Program-made: the position numbers and the translations under genes
In this document: positions 8,256 to 22,896 of the stretch, piece after piece
How positions within the stretch are numbered: position 1 is the first letter of the stretch
Layout: every line of letters begins with the position of its first letter
The notes under the pieces: model-generated
Told to the model about the DNA's origin: nothing
Seen by the model: the letters and a program-made list of their open reading frames with translations, nothing else
The model's database searches: none
Virus record (IMG/VR): IMGVR_UViG_3300033148_007251
Span: 11,280 to 75,279 of that record
Reading direction: 5' to 3' (one strand)
Source: a virus
DNA length: 64,000 nucleotides

Positions 8256-9032
8256 TTATTTAAATTTAGCTCTACTAAGATTAGCTCCACTAAGATTAGC
8301 TCTACTAAGGTTAGCTTCACTAAGGTTAGCTCTACTAAGGTTAGCTTCACTAAGGTTAGCTTCACTAAGGTTAGTCCAACTAAGATCAGCCCAACTAAGA
8401 TCAACTCTACCAAGGTTAGCTTCACTAAGATCAGTCCCACTAAGATCAGTCCCACTAAGATCAGCTCTATGAAGATCAGCTCCACTAAGATCAGCTTCAC
8501 TAAGATCAGTCCCACTAAGATCAGCTCTATGAAGATCAGCTCTATGAAGATCAGCTCCACTAAGATCAGCTCTATGAAGATCAGCTCCACTAAGATCGGC
8601 TCTATGAAGATCAGCTCCACTAAGATCGGCTCTATGAAGATCAGCTCCACTAAGATCGGCTCCACTAAGATCGGCCCAACTAAGATCACCCCAACTAAGA
8701 TCAGTTTCACTAAGGTTAGCCTTATCAAGGTTAGCCCTACTAAGATCACCCCAACTAAGATCAGTTTCACTAAGGTTAGCCTTATCAAGGTTAGCTTCGT
8801 TAAGGTTAATCTTACTAAGATCAGCTCTACCAAGGTTAGCTTCACTAAGATCAGTCCCACTAAGATCCGCCCCACTAAGATCCGCCCCACTAAGATCCGT
8901 CCCACGAAGATCAGCCCCACTAAGATCAGCTCTTATTTTAATAGCATTTCTTAGAGTTTTTCTTATTGTTTTTAAATTATCTTCGAATATTATTTTTTGA
9001 GTTTTTTTATGTATTATTTTCATAATTTTCAT
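8256..9032 (-). CDS. Pentapeptide repeat protein
   Basis: Continuous A(D/N)LSG/ADLHR pentapeptides encoded by 15-bp DNA repeats. Confidence 0.9.
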   Translation of the reverse strand: MKIMKIIHKKTQKIIFEDNLKTIRKTLRNAIKIRADLSGADLRGTDLSGADLSGADLSGTDLSEANLGRADLSKINLNEANLDKANLSETDLSWGDLSRANLDKANLSETDLSWGDLSWADLSGADLSGADLHRADLSGADLHRADLSGADLHRADLSGADLHRADLHRADLSGTDLSEADLSGADLHRADLSGTDLSGTDLSEANLGRVDLSWADLSWTNLSEANLSEANLSRANLSEANLSRANLSGANLSRAKFK

Positions 9033-9039
9033 TTTACCT

Positions 9040-9537
9040 TTATGAGTTTATGGTAAATTTAATTTCATTCAAAGTTTTGTCAATAATTTTCTTCTTCCAT
9101 CCTATTTTGACTAAGTATTTGGATAATTGATATACACTTAGTTTGGATTTAGGAATCATATTTATCAAATCTTTTGGGGCATCAAAAATAATAGCAACTA
9201 TATCTTTCGCTTCATTTGTCATTTTGTTTAGGGAGTCTTTAAAGATACATCTCTTTTCCTGGTTACCGCCATCAGTACTGTTAGTTTCTTCTATAAACTC
9301 ACAAGAGATATGCTTATTTTTATTTTGATTATTCTTTGTGATAATATTTTTGAATCTATTTTCTACTGATGAAAACAATAATGTTGAGAATTGTCCTTTT
9401 TTTGAATCATGTAGGGGAAAGCATTCTGCAAATAAAAGATTACATTCCCCCACAGCATCATCAAGTTCCGTATGAGACCTGGTGTGCCATTTCCATGCCT
9501 GCTTTTGTATCATTTTTGAATAATCTTGATATTCCAT
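9040..9537 (-). CDS. Phage sigma70-family (region 2) sigma factor-like protein
   Basis: MIQKQAWKW...ELDDAVGECNL...HDSKKGQFSTLLFSSVENRF resembles sigma region 2; start set at MEYQD behind a GGAG RBS. Confidence 0.7.
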   Translation of the reverse strand: MEYQDYSKMIQKQAWKWHTRSHTELDDAVGECNLLFAECFPLHDSKKGQFSTLLFSSVENRFKNIITKNNQNKNKHISCEFIEETNSTDGGNQEKRCIFKDSLNKMTNEAKDIVAIIFDAPKDLINMIPKSKLSVYQLSKYLVKIGWKKKIIDKTLNEIKFTINS

Positions 9538-9562
9538 TTTTGTTGCTCCCTTTTTGTTTAGT

Positions 9563-12500
9563 TTAATGTAATGTCTGTCCTTCATTATTAACTTCGCAAA
9601 AATCCTTTGATGTAACAGCATATGCGTATTCTTGTTCAGACACTACATCTATTAATGCATTCCAGTCAATTTCCCCATAATTAAGAGGGATATTATGCAA
9701 AACTATATATTTGGCTCGTATTCTATCTTGCCCATAAACATCATCATCATAATAAGGGTTTTCATAAAATTTAAAACTTTTTGTTATGTTGTATTTCATT
9801 TGTTGCCATCCTTTTTAATGATTATATTGTTTCTATTTCGCAGCCATCACCCCAAGTATCAGCAAGAGCCCAATTAACAGCGTGGCGAAGTTCGTTTTTA
9901 TTTGCATTTGGAAAATAATGAATGAGGTATTCAGTACAATCATTAATAATATTTCCTGAATAATGTTTCATGTCTTGCAGTGCTTTGGCTGCAGCGTTAT
10001 AATATTTTTTGTTATAATTTTTCATATTATTTTCTCTTTTTTAATTATATTTTTTATCTAATGTTTTTAAAAATGCCTTTAAAGATGCCTTTGATAATTT
10101 ATTTTCACTTTTATCTTTTTCTATTATTAATTCCTGGTTAAAGACTTCATCATAGGCTTCGGCCATTGATTCAATATATTGTTTATAATTTTTCATTTTT
10201 TTATATCCTCTTGAAGATATTATTGAGTTTGCGCGCTGCTTTTTTTCTTAATACCTCATTTATCATTCGTTTGTGTTCACTCTGACTAAAATATAATTTT
10301 TTTTCTTTTAGGTTTGTTAATTTTTTTTGTCTTTTCATTTTTTATTTACCTCCTTAAGGTTTATGGTTCAAACAAACAGAATTGGTATCCAAGCTATAAC
10401 TATTGCCAGAACTAAAATTATGCAAAATGTCACAAAACAGATTGCCGAAATATCATAAAGTTTAGCCGATTTTTTCTTTTTGTAGGTTTTCGTCTTTTTG
10501 GGGTTAGGATACCTATTTAAATAATCAGATGTTTTTTTTACAGCGATATTAAGATTTTGTTGATTTACCATGAACTATCTCCTTTTTATATAATGTAGAT
10601 TATTTTTTTGTTCTGTAAAAATTTTATATAGCCCGGGGCGTAAATCTTCCATAAGTTGTTTTTCTTTTTCCGTGTACGTGATCCCGAATTTCTGTTCGGT
10701 AGAGAACATCATTCTTATATTGTTTTCTGCCATCACTGTTCTTGCATCATGTGTTTTTTTGTAATGTGTTATTTTTCATGTCGTCCTCTTTCTTACGATG
10801 TATAGTTTCGCTCATCATCGACATTGTGCGTTAATACATATTCACAATCACGAAAGTATATCCATGCCTTCCATCGAGCAAAAAAACTTAATTTATATTT
10901 GACTGAACATCCAATAGTTATTGCCAGCCGTTCCATTTCTTTAATACTTGGCAAATTGTTAATGTAAGTGTTTTCAATTTTTGTTATTAATTCTAATAAA
11001 TTCATGATTCCTCCTATACCAGTTTTACAAGTTTATAGAAGAGCTTTACGATATTTCCATCATCATCCCTAATCATAACGTGCTCACTTTGCACGTCTAT
11101 TTCGAGTAAATGTCCCATTTTGCCAGTATCTACATTCTGACCAAAACCTTTATTGTCATATATTCGTACCCTTTGTCCGTAATAATTCTTCATTTTATGC
11201 CTCCATCTATGCCTTTAAAATTGTCTTTTCTAAAATAGATACTGTTTTGTAGGTCATACTTTACTGGATTTTTACGGTATAACTCCCAAACCTCTATACC
11301 GTCCATGGTGCTATTCCTTACGCCATAGTTTTTAATAGTATCCCCAAAAAAATGCATATTTGATCTTGTAAAATGATAAGGTGCCGTGTGTCTTGTCTGA
11401 TATTTTAATTCTAACGGGGTCATATTAATCCCTCCCTTTGTTGTCGATTTCTTTAAGCTCGCATAGTTCAAAAACATAATCAGGTACCCATGTGTTGCCT
11501 ATAAGTGCCTCCCCATCCTTAAATTCTTTCACGTCATAGACCATGCCGGTCATAAATGCCATTACGTTTTCTTGGCCAAGTTCTACAACATACAATTGTT
11601 TACATAGTCTTTTCATAATGCCTCCTTTATATTCATTTTTTGTAATTCTATTATTCGTTTTGTTAATTCCACAATAGTGAATGGATACCATTCACCGTTT
11701 GGTTTGAATCTACGACATAAAACATTATTAATTACTTTTTCTTCATAATACATAATATCTCCCCTCCTTTATGCCATGAAGTAGTTGTCTTCTTGCACAA
11801 CCCTGTTATAAATTGTTAGAAAATCCAATGTATCAATGATATTTACATTTGATTGTTTAATAGGTTTCTCATTCAGGCATTTAAAAACACCTGGATGTAA
11901 GTCTTCAAGCATGTTTATTTCGGCTTGAGTGTATGTCCCGCCAAATCCTGCCATAAGCTTTTCATTTGTGACTATATTCTTTTTTGCTTTCTTTGTACAG
12001 GAACTGTGTATTTTTGCCATGTTGATTTGTTTCTTAATTTCTTGCATTGTCATTTTATCACCTTTATTAATGAGTTTAAAATTTATTATATGATTTATCC
12101 TTTTTGCCATTATTATTTTCTTTGATTTTGTCATGTTATATCTCCTTTTAATTAAATTACAAACTCCAATATGGTTTTTTATTTCAAATTATCCCATAAT
12201 GTTTTTACCGATATATAATGCTAACTTATTTAGTGCAAGTAATAGTTGTTTTTTTGTAATTTTATTCCCATTTTTAATACGTTTCATTAACAGCGTCTAA
12301 TTTATCCATAAGCATTTCGATATGTTTTGTTTTCTGTACTCCTAATATAGATTCAATTGATACGTTTCCATGTAACAGTTGAACTTTATACACTTTATTT
12401 TGGGCTAACCATATTTCTTTTTTTTCGTTTATCATAGCATCCATATTATTTTGTCTCCTTTTTAAGGGTGTTTCGATTTCAAAAATCTATTGCCTGTTTT

Positions 12501-12990: not shown

Positions 12991-13011
12991 TTTAATATCA
13001 CCTCCCTATAA

Positions 13012-13065
13012 AGTGTTTCGATCTTTAAGATCTCATCAGTGACAGTCACATAACAGCCAGACACT
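13012..13065 (-). ncRNA. Type III hammerhead ribozyme (HH-B)
   Basis: AGUGU-C|UGGC-uguuaugugacu-GUCA-CUGAUGA-GAUC-uuaaa-GAUC-GAA-ACACU; intact core and three stems; predicted cut between 13060 and 13059. Confidence 0.88.
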
Positions 13066-13112
13066 AAGAGCAGTTTAATGACTTGCTGAGGTCATTATAT
13101 TAGATTGTAATG

Positions 13113-13280
13113 TTACTGAATAATTTTTGCTGCCCAATCTGGAACATCCACTTCTTTGCCAGATTTATTTGTAATTTTATAATATCTACCATTATTGCCA
13201 ATCTCAATGGTAGCACTATAAATTTCTTTTTTTGTAATTCCCAACCAGCTTATTAATGTATCTGTTATTATGATTTTCAT
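13113..13280 (-). CDS. 55-aa hypothetical protein between the two hammerheads
   Basis: MKIIITDTLISWLGITKKEIYSATIEIGNNGRYYKITNKSGKEVDVPDWAAKIIQ; AGGAGG RBS; below the ORF-track cutoff. Confidence 0.75.
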   Translation of the reverse strand: MKIIITDTLISWLGITKKEIYSATIEIGNNGRYYKITNKSGKEVDVPDWAAKIIQ

Positions 13281-13298
13281 AATGCTCCTCCTTTTTAA

Positions 13299-13354
13299 TA
13301 ATGTTTCGATTTATAAAATCTCATCAGTAACAGTAATATAACTGTTAGACACTA
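13299..13354 (-). ncRNA. Type III hammerhead ribozyme (HH-A)
   Basis: UAGUGU-C|UAACAG-uuauauua-CUGUUA-CUGAUGA-GAUUU-uau-AAAUC-GAA-ACAUUA; predicted cut between 13348 and 13347. Confidence 0.92.
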
Positions 13355-13573
13355 AGAGCATCCATTAGCTTGCCTTATATAATAAGGTAGAGGCATCCTG
13401 GTATGTCCATTCGGTTCTCAATGCTGTTAGGTTTTTAGTAACCCTGCATGATGGAGTCCTTGACTATTTGTCGAGGCGTCTATTTTTTTATTTCAAACAA
13501 GATGTTTTTTAATGGGTTTACTTGCTGGCACCGTTTCCCGTGTGCCTCTTGTTTGTTCTTGTTTATATAGTAC

Positions 13574-13589
13574 TGCAAACCGTGTGCCA
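13574..13589 (-). promoter_or_regulatory. Sigma54 (-24/-12) promoter
   Basis: TGGCACACGGTTTGCA, exact GG-N10-GC spacing, intergenic. Confidence 0.75.
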
Positions 13590-13730
13590 TGTTGTTAAAT
13601 AAATCGTAATAAATATTAAAAGTAATGTAAGTTACTTAAATTATTATGTATATATTTTATCAAGATAATTTAAATACCTTTTGTTTATTGTAAATTTAGC
13701 TATTTTAGATACATTTAAAATTGGACTGGA

Positions 13731-13828
13731 CTGGACAGTCATACACTTTTGTAAATATTTATAATAGAATCAATATATTATAAGATGAATACTCTAAATC
13801 ATACACTCCTGGACAGTCGTACACTTTT
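13731..13828. repeat. 20-bp direct repeat CTGGACAGTC(A/G)TACACTTTT x2, candidate enhancer sites, with an IHF-consensus site between them
   Basis: Copies at 13731-13750 and 13809-13828 (19/20 identical); AATCAATATATTA at 13768-13780 matches WATCAANNNNTTR. Confidence 0.55.
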
Positions 13829-13836
13829 TAACCCTA

Positions 13837-14208
13837 TTATAGATCCTCAAACCATATAATTTTTTTCTTATCTACTATGTTAGGTTTAATATCTTGTTTT
13901 GACTTAGGTTTAAATATTGGTGTTTCAATAGGCTGTGTGTCAATAATGGCCCGTGGTATATATTCTACATAATCATTAATATATTCTTTTATTTGATTTA
14001 CTGGCCAAAACCACTCCCCTCTAATGTGATATGTGGCAAAGCTTCTGTGCAACTCTTGTTCAAATCCTATATCTCCATCAATAGCTTTGATTATAGTTAA
14101 TTGTTCCCATGAACCCGTTTGTAATTGTTTTAGTCTATCATTTATATCTCTACTTGTGTACCCGATTTTAATTGGCCCTGATGTCCCACTTTGTATAAAG
14201 TATATCAT
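13837..14208 (-). CDS. T5orf172/MUG113-type GIY-YIG domain protein
   Basis: IYFIQ...IKIGYT...RLKQLQTG...EQELH..F...RGEWF. Confidence 0.85.
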   Translation of the reverse strand: MIYFIQSGTSGPIKIGYTSRDINDRLKQLQTGSWEQLTIIKAIDGDIGFEQELHRSFATYHIRGEWFWPVNQIKEYINDYVEYIPRAIIDTQPIETPIFKPKSKQDIKPNIVDKKKIIWFEDL

Positions 14209-14257
14209 GTTATTTTTCCCTTTTATTTGTTTTGATGCCTTTTTTATTAATTAAAGG

Positions 14258-14383
14258 TTATTCGTTAACTATTCCGGGATATACTACGATGTATCCTTGT
14301 TGGGCGTAAGAATCAGCCTTACTTGGAACTCCATAATCGACGTGAACCCAACGGCCATTTATTTCCTTATAAAGTTTTACCAT
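14258..14383 (-). CDS. 41-aa hypothetical early protein
   Basis: AAGGAG RBS before MVKLYKEING; first gene after a sigma54 promoter. Confidence 0.6.
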   Translation of the reverse strand: MVKLYKEINGRWVHVDYGVPSKADSYAQQGYIVVYPGIVNE

Positions 14384-14435
14384 TTTGTTTTCTCCTTTGT
14401 TTTGTTGGTTTGTTTTGTTGTTATCTATATGTAGA

Positions 14436-14451
14436 AGCAAGATTAATGCCA
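14436..14451 (-). promoter_or_regulatory. Sigma54 (-24/-12) promoter
   Basis: TGGCATTAATCTTGCT, GG-N10-GC. Confidence 0.7.
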
Positions 14452-14630
14452 GGTGTTATAATATTTGTTATTTAGTTTGTAACATTTGGATATTATAGTG
14501 TAAAAGTTGATGAATGTTCAAAACGACGTCAGGTTGAAAATTGTGTAATTGTGGCATCGACTACCAAAATTTGTCATATTTTTGCCATATTTTGTTATTG
14601 ATGATTATTTTGAAATTAAAAATTTACAGC

Positions 14631-14662
14631 CCTTGACAACTGAAATTTATGCTTTATTATAT
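14631..14662 (+). promoter_or_regulatory. Sigma70-like promoter; near copy at 15262-15295
   Basis: CCCTTGACAACT(G/A)AAAT(T/C)TATG...TATTAT occurs twice. Confidence 0.6.
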
Positions 14663-14690
14663 AGTTATAACCAATATATAAAATTATATG

Positions 14691-15043
14691 TGATCCGGTA
14701 AAATTTCTATTTAAGACCTGTATACCGGCTATCAAAGTAACAACAGGCATCGGTTGGCTAACCGGTACAATAAATTCAAGCTATCCAATTTCAAATGGCA
14801 TTTGTATCCGTCCATTTGGCCCCGTTCCTGCAACCCAGGGGATCATTGTGAATAAAGAGATTATTTGGAATCTCTTTGCCTCAGTTAAGACAGAACTGGA
14901 TGAGGGCAATCGTTTTGTAAAAAGCGATTCAAACACAATGCGTTTTTTATATGAACTTATGACACGAAGTTGACGACACATACGGCAAAAACAATATCCC
15001 CCTATTTTAAATTTATTTTTTTTAAATTTAAAATAGGGGGATA
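14691..15043 (+). ncRNA. Candidate large structured non-coding RNA
   Basis: Dense nested inverted repeats downstream of a promoter, no credible ORF, ends in a long hairpin. Confidence 0.45.
14996..15043. terminator. Long inverted repeat (terminator or cruciform)
   Basis: TATCCCCCTATTTTAAATTTA...TAAATTTAAAATAGGGGGATA. Confidence 0.6.
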
Positions 15044-15073: not shown

Positions 15074-15123
15074 AATATTAATTATTAAATATTAATTATT
15101 AAATATTAATTATTAAATATTAA
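15074..15123. repeat. 14-bp AT-only tandem repeat AATATTAATTATTA x3.5
   Basis: Read directly from sequence. Confidence 0.85.
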
Positions 15124-15491
15124 AAATGCACGCTTATATAATAAGGTATATCGATAATCATACCAAGGTAACAATAATTATTTAATAGCTAAAATTAAAT
15201 AAAAAAAATTTACATTTAATTCAACTCATTATGGATAAAAATAAAAATATTTTGCCGTTGCCCCTTGACAACTAAAATCTATGTATTATATTATAGAAAT
15301 GAAAGTGTTTTATATAAATTAAGTCTTTACAAGCAACAAGAATAAGCCAAACTTAAACCTTAAACCTTATCAGGATTGCTTTAAAGACTTGTAAAAACTG
15401 TAAAAACGGCTTAAAAGGTTTTTACAGTTTTTAATGTTTCTTTGAGTTTATTAAAAAAAACGTTAATTTTATTAAAAATTATATATATATT

Positions 15492-22277: not shown

Positions 22278-22296
22278 ACAAACTTAACAATAGACT

Positions 22297-22365
22297 TTTG
22301 CGGGATAGAGTTCCATACAAACTCGATAAGCTGACGATTCCCCTTTTTCATCAGCTTCCCGCAAA
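22297..22365 (+). ncRNA. Structured leader motif, copy 1 (three-way junction)
   Basis: TTTGCGGGA..TCCCGCAAA closing GAGTT/AACTC and AGCTGA/TCAGCT stems. Confidence 0.6.
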
Positions 22366-22419
22366 TAATGATATTAAATAAAAGGGATATTAAGTTATCG
22401 AAAATAGGAGATTATAATT

Positions 22420-22797: not shown

Positions 22798-22813
22798 AAA
22801 CAGTAACCTAAAT

Positions 22814-22873
22814 AGTTACGGGATAGAGTTTCGCACTCGAAAACGGGCATCCCTAAGTCCTATTCCCGTAACT
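22814..22873 (+). ncRNA. Structured leader motif, copy 2
   Basis: AGTTACGGGA..TCCCGTAACT closing GAGT/ACTC and GGGC/GTCC stems. Confidence 0.6.
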
Positions 22874-22896
22874 TAATCATTAGGAGATAGACGGTT

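Follow-up and report, generated by a model that had tools for sequence, protein, structure and literature searches.

Lytic phages usually begin infection from strong housekeeping promoters. Two sigma-54-like -24/-12 sites at the head of the leftward (minus-strand) arm of a phage genome raise the question of which RNA polymerase reads the early genes of this phage, and whether these genes depend on the sigma-54 system of its host. The window analyzed in this study is a stretch of 64,000 nucleotides comprising bases 11280-75279 of a 75,279-bp IMG/VR record, which has 114-bp terminal repeats and ~33% G+C. The source is the genome of an uncultured lytic tailed phage of ~75 kb. It contained genes for packaging and head formation (small and large terminase, portal, protease, and capsid) and a set for replication and recombination (DnaE-type polymerase, clamp loader, gp32-like, RecA/UvsX-like, and SbcCD-like proteins, endonuclease VII, primase, helicase, and NrdD), as well as a single-domain lysozyme and several GIY-YIG endonucleases; no integrase was seen among the phage proteins searched. 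The polymerase, capsid, and portal showed at most ~35% identity to those of GenBank phages. The structural genes occupy the plus strand between 15.5 and 43.4 kb, and all remaining genes lie on the minus strand from ~15.0 kb onward around the genome. At its head, the leftward arm carries ~25 small ORFs without a known function (15.0 to 9.6 kb); next come, in this order, a sigma-70-family gene, a pentapeptide-repeat gene, and the replication genes, and it is a reasonable inference that the small-gene block is early. The sites and genes concerned are as follows.

14436-14451, minus strand: P2 core TGGCATTAATCTTGCT, an exact TGGCA-N6-TTGC (sigma-54 -24/-12 consensus), predicted +1 at 14425
14258-14383, minus strand: first early gene (41 aa), downstream of P2, with a strong Shine-Dalgarno sequence (AAAGGAGAA)
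13837-14208, minus strand: gene for a 123-aa protein with MUG113/T5orf172 domains, between P2 and P1
13574-13589, minus strand: P1 core TGGCACACGGTTTGCA, an exact TGGCA-N6-TTGC, predicted +1 at 13563
13113-13280, minus strand: 55-aa ORF, directly after the predicted P1 leader
9040-9621, minus strand: gene for the sigma-70-family protein, closing the small-gene block

The product of the last gene matched Sigma70_r2 below the cut-off, with viral Sigma70_r2 clusters scoring 0.97, and might be an alternative factor that reads phage promoters. Directly after it, a 258-aa protein consisting almost entirely of pentapeptide repeats (8256-9032, minus strand) may be a DNA mimic.

The first-pass annotation had described P1 and P2 as intergenic minus-strand sites with sigma-54 spacing. 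The sequence check found both 16-mers at these positions between genes, with GG and GC 10 nt apart in each, and the C at -12 gives the predicted starts listed above. Neither the window nor the full 75,279-bp record contains any other exact TGGCA-N6-TTGC match, and both sites are co-oriented with the early arm, facing the small-gene block. By count alone this is weak evidence, as dinucleotide shuffles of the whole window gave a mean of 0.69 matches and at least two matches in 11 of 100 cases. When only the ~5 kb of non-coding DNA read toward a downstream gene was shuffled with dinucleotides kept, 0.008 sites were expected and none of 5000 shuffles contained two. In a weighted -24/-12 scan requiring GG and GC, P1 and P2 reached the maximum score; the other hits scored lower and were almost all intragenic, and no site of comparable score was found between genes elsewhere in the phage genome. 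The P1 and P2 motifs exist as described and are not a product of chance.

All 11 defined sigma-54 positions are matched in both copies, and both sites have the features by which sigma-54 promoters are defined in sequence (GG at -24, GC at -12, and a TGGCAC-N5-TTGCW frame). They match the Clostridiales sigma-54 consensus TTGGCATNNNNNTTGCT (PMC6615313), and P2 departs from this consensus at the first base only. A second published consensus, TGGCAC-N5-7-TTGCT (PMC12316311), is matched as well. Each core is embedded in a longer module.

14405-14456, minus strand: P2 copy of the module, acCTGGCAT-N5-TTGCT-N5-ATATAGATAACAACAAA
13543-13594, minus strand: P1 copy of the module, acATGGCAC-N5-TTGCA-N5-ATATAAACAAGAACAAA

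The two copies align without gaps, with the consensus acnTGGCAY-N5-TTGCW-N5-ATATArAyAAsAACAAA from about -30 to +20. Their similarity is confined to this interval, which is the size of a polymerase footprint. The alignment also bears out the earlier remark that the A/C-rich leaders of P1 and P2 are alike; that of P2 comprises 42 nt from the predicted +1 to the Shine-Dalgarno sequence, with the ATG at 14383. The -24 and -12 blocks are identical between copies, whereas the copies agree at none of the 5 spacer positions, and this contrast is the pattern expected if only the sigma-54 contacts were selected. A recently duplicated copy would have retained its spacer, and recent duplication is thus argued against. 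It is therefore very improbable that the sites are functionless chance matches, or one chance match duplicated: although the motif was picked after the sequence was read, two or more matches arise in 11 of 100 whole-window shuffles, and the sites are absent from the nearest relative of the phage (L132, described below), two matches never arose in oriented non-coding DNA, and both sites score at the maximum and are placed and oriented as promoters are.

The module is the only repeated minus-strand element in the P1/P2 stretch. No other recurrent type of phage promoter was found on the minus strand from 15.0 to 9.6 kb, so that the promoters of the small-gene block must lie in the 1.1-kb P1/P2 stretch. 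These results indicate that the module is likely to be a promoter, whichever enzyme reads it. A T4 MotA-box reading of TTGCTTC in P2 was rejected, as P1 has no such box and the distance to any -10 is unsuitable.

The module might be read by a sigma-70-family holoenzyme, containing host sigma-A or the sigma-like protein of the phage, with its sigma-54 likeness a coincidence. ATGGCA and CTGGCA each share 4 of 6 positions with TTGACA, TATAAA or TATAGA follows exactly 17 bp downstream in both copies, and the ATATA block is kept between copies with no sigma-54 requirement for it. Such a reading would accord with the sigma-70-family protein encoded by the phage (9040-9621), with the sigma-70-type promoters used in the rest of its genome, and with the sigma-70-type early promoter of its closest relative, and it would be workable in a host without sigma-54. 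However, TATAAA and TATAGA lack the final T and hence were not listed by the promoter scan, and the module, with 4 of 6 matches in nTGGCA and a 17-bp spacer, falls outside the canonical sigma-70 definition (-10 with A2 and T6). The conserved TTGCW within the spacer would be left unexplained, as would the full set of sigma-54 positions in both copies. If the phage sigma-like protein were the reader, extra copies would be expected before middle or late genes, and the genome has none. We consider a sigma-70-family reader of the module unlikely.

Sigma-70-like sequences were also found upstream of both cores, and a structured leader is predicted downstream of P1.

14492-14521, minus strand: sigma-70-like TTGAAC-N18-TATAAT (10/12 match), ending 40 nt upstream of the P2 core
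13654-13662, minus strand: extended -10-like TGaTAAAAT, ~65 nt upstream of the P1 core, without a good -35
13281-13563, minus strand: predicted P1 leader (283 nt) with a long-range helix, a boxB-like hairpin, and a hammerhead core

The first of these is a candidate for a rival or tandem early promoter and the second a weak candidate for a sigma-70 promoter. If transcription started at these two promoters (14521-14492 and near 13662-13654), the boxes would lie in 5' leaders as protein-binding sites, occupied either by sigma-54 holoenzyme in a closed complex, acting as a roadblock or brake, or by another DNA- or RNA-binding protein. The position of both candidates just upstream of the boxes is in line with such an arrangement, as are the operator-like phased pentamers between divergent promoters (see below) and the observation that sigma-54 holoenzyme without activator remains a closed complex (PMC6615313). 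On the other hand, the candidates are no better than many chance matches, as the scan found 38 sigma-70-like promoters in this AT-rich phage DNA against 21 expected, and they lack the features of the clear promoters of the phage. The module is conserved to +20, as in a promoter, and pairing of the box RNA with a P1-leader hairpin repeating GGCACACGG was not predicted (z = -1.3). Start sites upstream, with the boxes in leaders, therefore seem doubtful.

The P1 leader folds better than its shuffles (z = -2.6). It contains the hairpin GGCAC-A-CG-GGAAA-CG-GUGCC (13527-13546, minus strand), enclosed by a long-range helix (ACAAACAAGA/UCUUGUUUG) and resembling the lambdoid boxB (nut) hairpin. A second hammerhead was matched in Rfam at 13010-13067 (E = 2.6e-5, below the gathering score).

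Several other promoter types were identified in the phage. At least 10 copies of YTTGTATAAT, an extended -10-like promoter mostly without a -35, occur in the minus arm and frequently precede leaderless GIY-YIG genes or small RNAs without a gap. An A-rich tract accompanies this element at 1071, 5606, 45475, 49575, 54318, 54537, and 61881 (minus strand), and further copies lie outside the window at -7821, -9787, and -2546. In four GIY-YIG endonuclease genes, the ATG lies 7-9 nt past the -10 of this element, and their mRNAs would thus be leaderless. Two near-identical consensus sigma-70 promoters, CCCTTGACAACT...TATTAT, were found on the plus strand at 14633 and 15265. The former belongs to a 35-nt module (CCCTTGACAACT...TATTATATAG) in 14630-15043 (plus strand), which shares 83% identity with the module that precedes the terminase genes at 15262.

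Taken together, we propose that P1 and P2 are true sigma-54-dependent promoters, which probably work in tandem with promoters of the sigma-70 type, and assign this reading, drawn from sequence, a probability of about 0.45. Host sigma-54 RNA polymerase holoenzyme would dock on P1 and P2 through GG at -24 and GC at -12, and a host enhancer-binding protein would open the complex in an ATP-dependent manner, with starts near 14425 and 13563. Transcripts from P2 would carry the 41-aa gene and the MUG113 gene, and those from P1 the structured leader and the hammerheads, followed by ~4 kb of small genes. Basal early expression independent of sigma-54 would come from the weaker sigma-70-type promoters, which probably lie in tandem with the sigma-54-type sites just downstream of them, and an active host activator would act as a booster. 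From sequence features we infer that sigma-54 binds, where transcription starts, that an activator is involved, and any function of the upstream repeats, and dependence of P1 and P2 on sigma-54 is plausible.

The genome encodes neither of the proteins that such promoters use. A PF04552 search of the genome for sigma-54 returned noise only. The best PF00158 match, at 14.5 bits, fell on the clamp loader (Pfam), and no GAFTGA motif was found, in agreement with the first-pass annotation, which had reported no enhancer-binding ATPase. Its suggestion that early transcription may depend on a host activator draws support from the absence of a phage activator, but with the sigma-70-like promoters 40-70 nt upstream of both sites, early transcription need not depend on sigma-54. 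Its proposal of sigma-54-driven early genes is partly supported: the motifs are non-random and placed like promoters, whereas the only syntenic relative carries a sigma-70-type early promoter. Much less probably, a lytic phage may gate its whole early program on one host activator by copying the enhancer of that activator. In the preferred tandem arrangement of sigma-54-dependent and sigma-70-type promoters, the candidate activator sites would be among the repeated elements upstream.

13809-13828, unstranded: direct repeat R1 (minus-strand reading AAAAGTGTACGACTGTCCAG), centered ~255 bp upstream of the P1 +1
13731-13750, unstranded: direct repeat R2, centered ~178 bp upstream of the P1 +1
14552-14587, minus strand: four phased pentamers (TGGCA/TGACA/TGGTA/TGCCA) with spacings of 11, 10, and 10 bp, including TGTCA-N6-TGCCA

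R1 and R2 are identical at 19 of 20 positions, 78 bp apart, and located 142-239 bp upstream of the P1 site. The 20-bp pair described previously as near-palindromic is thus real and upstream of P1, but its members repeat in direct orientation, and the palindrome within each is imperfect (TGtAC-N4-GTcCA). Likewise, TGTCA-N6-TGCCA is present at 14570-14585 (plus strand) but is not a palindrome, consisting of two same-sense TGRCA pentamers on the minus strand. The expectation for the pentamer array is 0.04, a value that gives no clean test because the TGNNA pattern was derived from the same data. The array sits between the divergent sigma-70-type promoters at 14633 (plus strand) and 14521 (minus strand) and, by analogy with operators of divergent promoters, which are placed in the same way, looks like an operator. 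R1 and R2 lie in very AT-rich DNA at the switch in gene orientation, where the cumulative GC skew has its minimum, and resemble replication-origin iterons in being 20-bp direct repeats in such DNA, although only two copies are present here. They are candidate activator sites or replication iterons, which fit equally well. As enhancers, therefore, the repeats are real and at plausible distances, but iterons or an operator explain them just as well. Neither R1/R2 nor the pentamer array showed meaningful recurrence elsewhere in the phage genome or in IMG/VR.

The only syntenic relative found was L132, a 6112-bp contig (G001:C28) with TerL and TerS 72% and 51% identical to those of the phage. Scans of IMG/VR and metagenomes with TerL, TerS, and MUG113 gave only distant or non-syntenic relatives and no close relative of the early region, and nothing useful was recovered with the 20-nt repeat, the extended module, or the plus-strand promoter module as queries. 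L132 shares the divergent layout of the phage, its translated sequence includes a homologue of the sigma-like gene, and its early arm starts from a sigma-70-type TTGACT-N17-TATCTT. In a weighted scan of the contig, no -24/-12 site scored 20 or more; distant relatives likewise lack such a site in a comparable place, and the sites are thus not conserved among the related genomes. A look-alike site in L013 (TGGCACGCCTTTTGCA) was rejected, as its neighboring genes are on the other strand. The L132 early arm before the sigma-like gene is ~1 kb long, versus 5.5 kb in this phage, and L132 has its own promoter-plus-leader module, TTAATAATAAGAAGGAAATA(A)TTAACCTAAA, present twice before early genes. That the relative also repeats a promoter-plus-leader module fits the P1/P2 module being a promoter.

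L132 was binned in a 0.8-Mb MAG; genome sizes are 0.3-0.9 Mb among the 30 nearest relatives of this MAG and mostly 0.7-1.2 Mb among sampled genomes of the phylum, and these small genomes fit Patescibacteria/CPR. Sigma54_DBD was found above the cut-off in none of 31 relatives of the L132 MAG and none of 301 sampled phylum genomes, and the controls gave hits. The host without sigma-54 hinted at by this MAG weakens the sigma-54 reading. The evidence that the phage has a small-genome host is thin, coming through one short binned contig of a relative and not from this phage itself. TerL homologues were much more frequent in Bacillota (34 of 351 genomes, best 51%) than in the small-genome phylum (4 of 401 genomes, best 72%), and this distribution across phyla is suggestive but not decisive as a host clue. 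If the phage infects a CPR-like host without sigma-54, the module would represent a new class of promoter that has converged on the sigma-54 consensus and depends on a different factor, with the sigma-like protein of the phage as one possible reader; we regard this as quite improbable.

Other host clues were less informative. NrdD was non-discriminating: the identity of the phage protein was 55-63% in comparisons with the small-genome lineage and 65% with a Desulfobacula MAG. The nrdD of G001 adjoins a gene with an FtsZ-type glycine-rich motif and looks chromosomal. In eight small-genome relatives (G013, G015, G016, G019, G021, G025, G027, and G031), the NrdD match was split into two or three pieces within single frames of 1050-1430 aa, which suggests large in-frame insertions, possibly inteins. 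DNA matches and spacers in 121 genomes of the order of the L132 MAG gave AT-rich noise only, and the TGGCA-N6-TTGC motif occurred in 0-6 copies in each of five small-genome MAGs, with no sign of a regulon.

The tandem arrangement proposed for P1 and P2 has a bacterial counterpart in E. coli glnAp1-glnAp2, which are tandem sigma-70/sigma-54 promoters. As in that system, a sigma-70-type promoter lies tens of bp upstream of a sigma-54-type one for the same genes, here as a prediction. P1 and P2 also resemble bacterial RpoN promoters, such as those of Clostridiales (PMC6615313), in the TGGCAY-N5-TTGCW sequence, exact spacing, and intergenic, co-oriented placement, as well as in the repeated elements 120-260 bp upstream; they differ in that the repeats are direct whereas inverted repeats are usual upstream of bacterial RpoN promoters, and in that the phage sites are carried by a lytic phage without its own sigma-54 or activator. 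In Pseudomonas phage YuA, the start of the sigma-54-like promoter P015 was mapped by ONT-cappable-seq (PMC10914365), consistent with earlier promoter-trap activity; that study cites Ceyssens et al. 2008. YuA likewise carries a sigma-54-type promoter beside sigma-70-type and phage-specific ones with no activator of its own, whereas P1 and P2 are known from sequence alone, and the two phages are unrelated. The view of the first-pass annotation that such promoters are unusual for a phage is fair, but YuA provides a precedent (PMC10914365). No other natural phage-borne sigma-54-type promoter was found in the literature searches.

If the sigma-54 reading is true, placing the early arm behind such promoters would tie the onset of infection to a host signaling ATPase and hence to host physiology. 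A novel environmental phage would join YuA, the single mapped example, and a start point would be given for the transcript carrying two hammerhead ribozymes. Should the host prove to lack sigma-54, the two perfect consensus sites would have to be explained in a new way.

Further structured or repeated elements were observed in the neighborhood of the plus-strand promoters and in the late arm. The promoter in 14630-15043 points into a G+C-richer unit of ~370 nt, whose sole ORF (41 aa, GTG start, 14848-14973) precedes a perfect hairpin with 21-bp arms at the end of the unit (14995-15043); this unit could be a small regulator or non-coding RNA divergent from the early arm. Between the hairpin and the terminase promoter, three or four tandem copies of a 14-bp unit, AATATTAATTATTA, at 15074-15150 may form a packaging or replication site. 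In the late arm, the intergenic regions at 22290-22400 and 22810-22890 (plus strand) share TTRCGGGATAGAGTT...TCCCGYAA, with a stem closing ~60-70 nt, which may be a repeated structured RNA between head genes.
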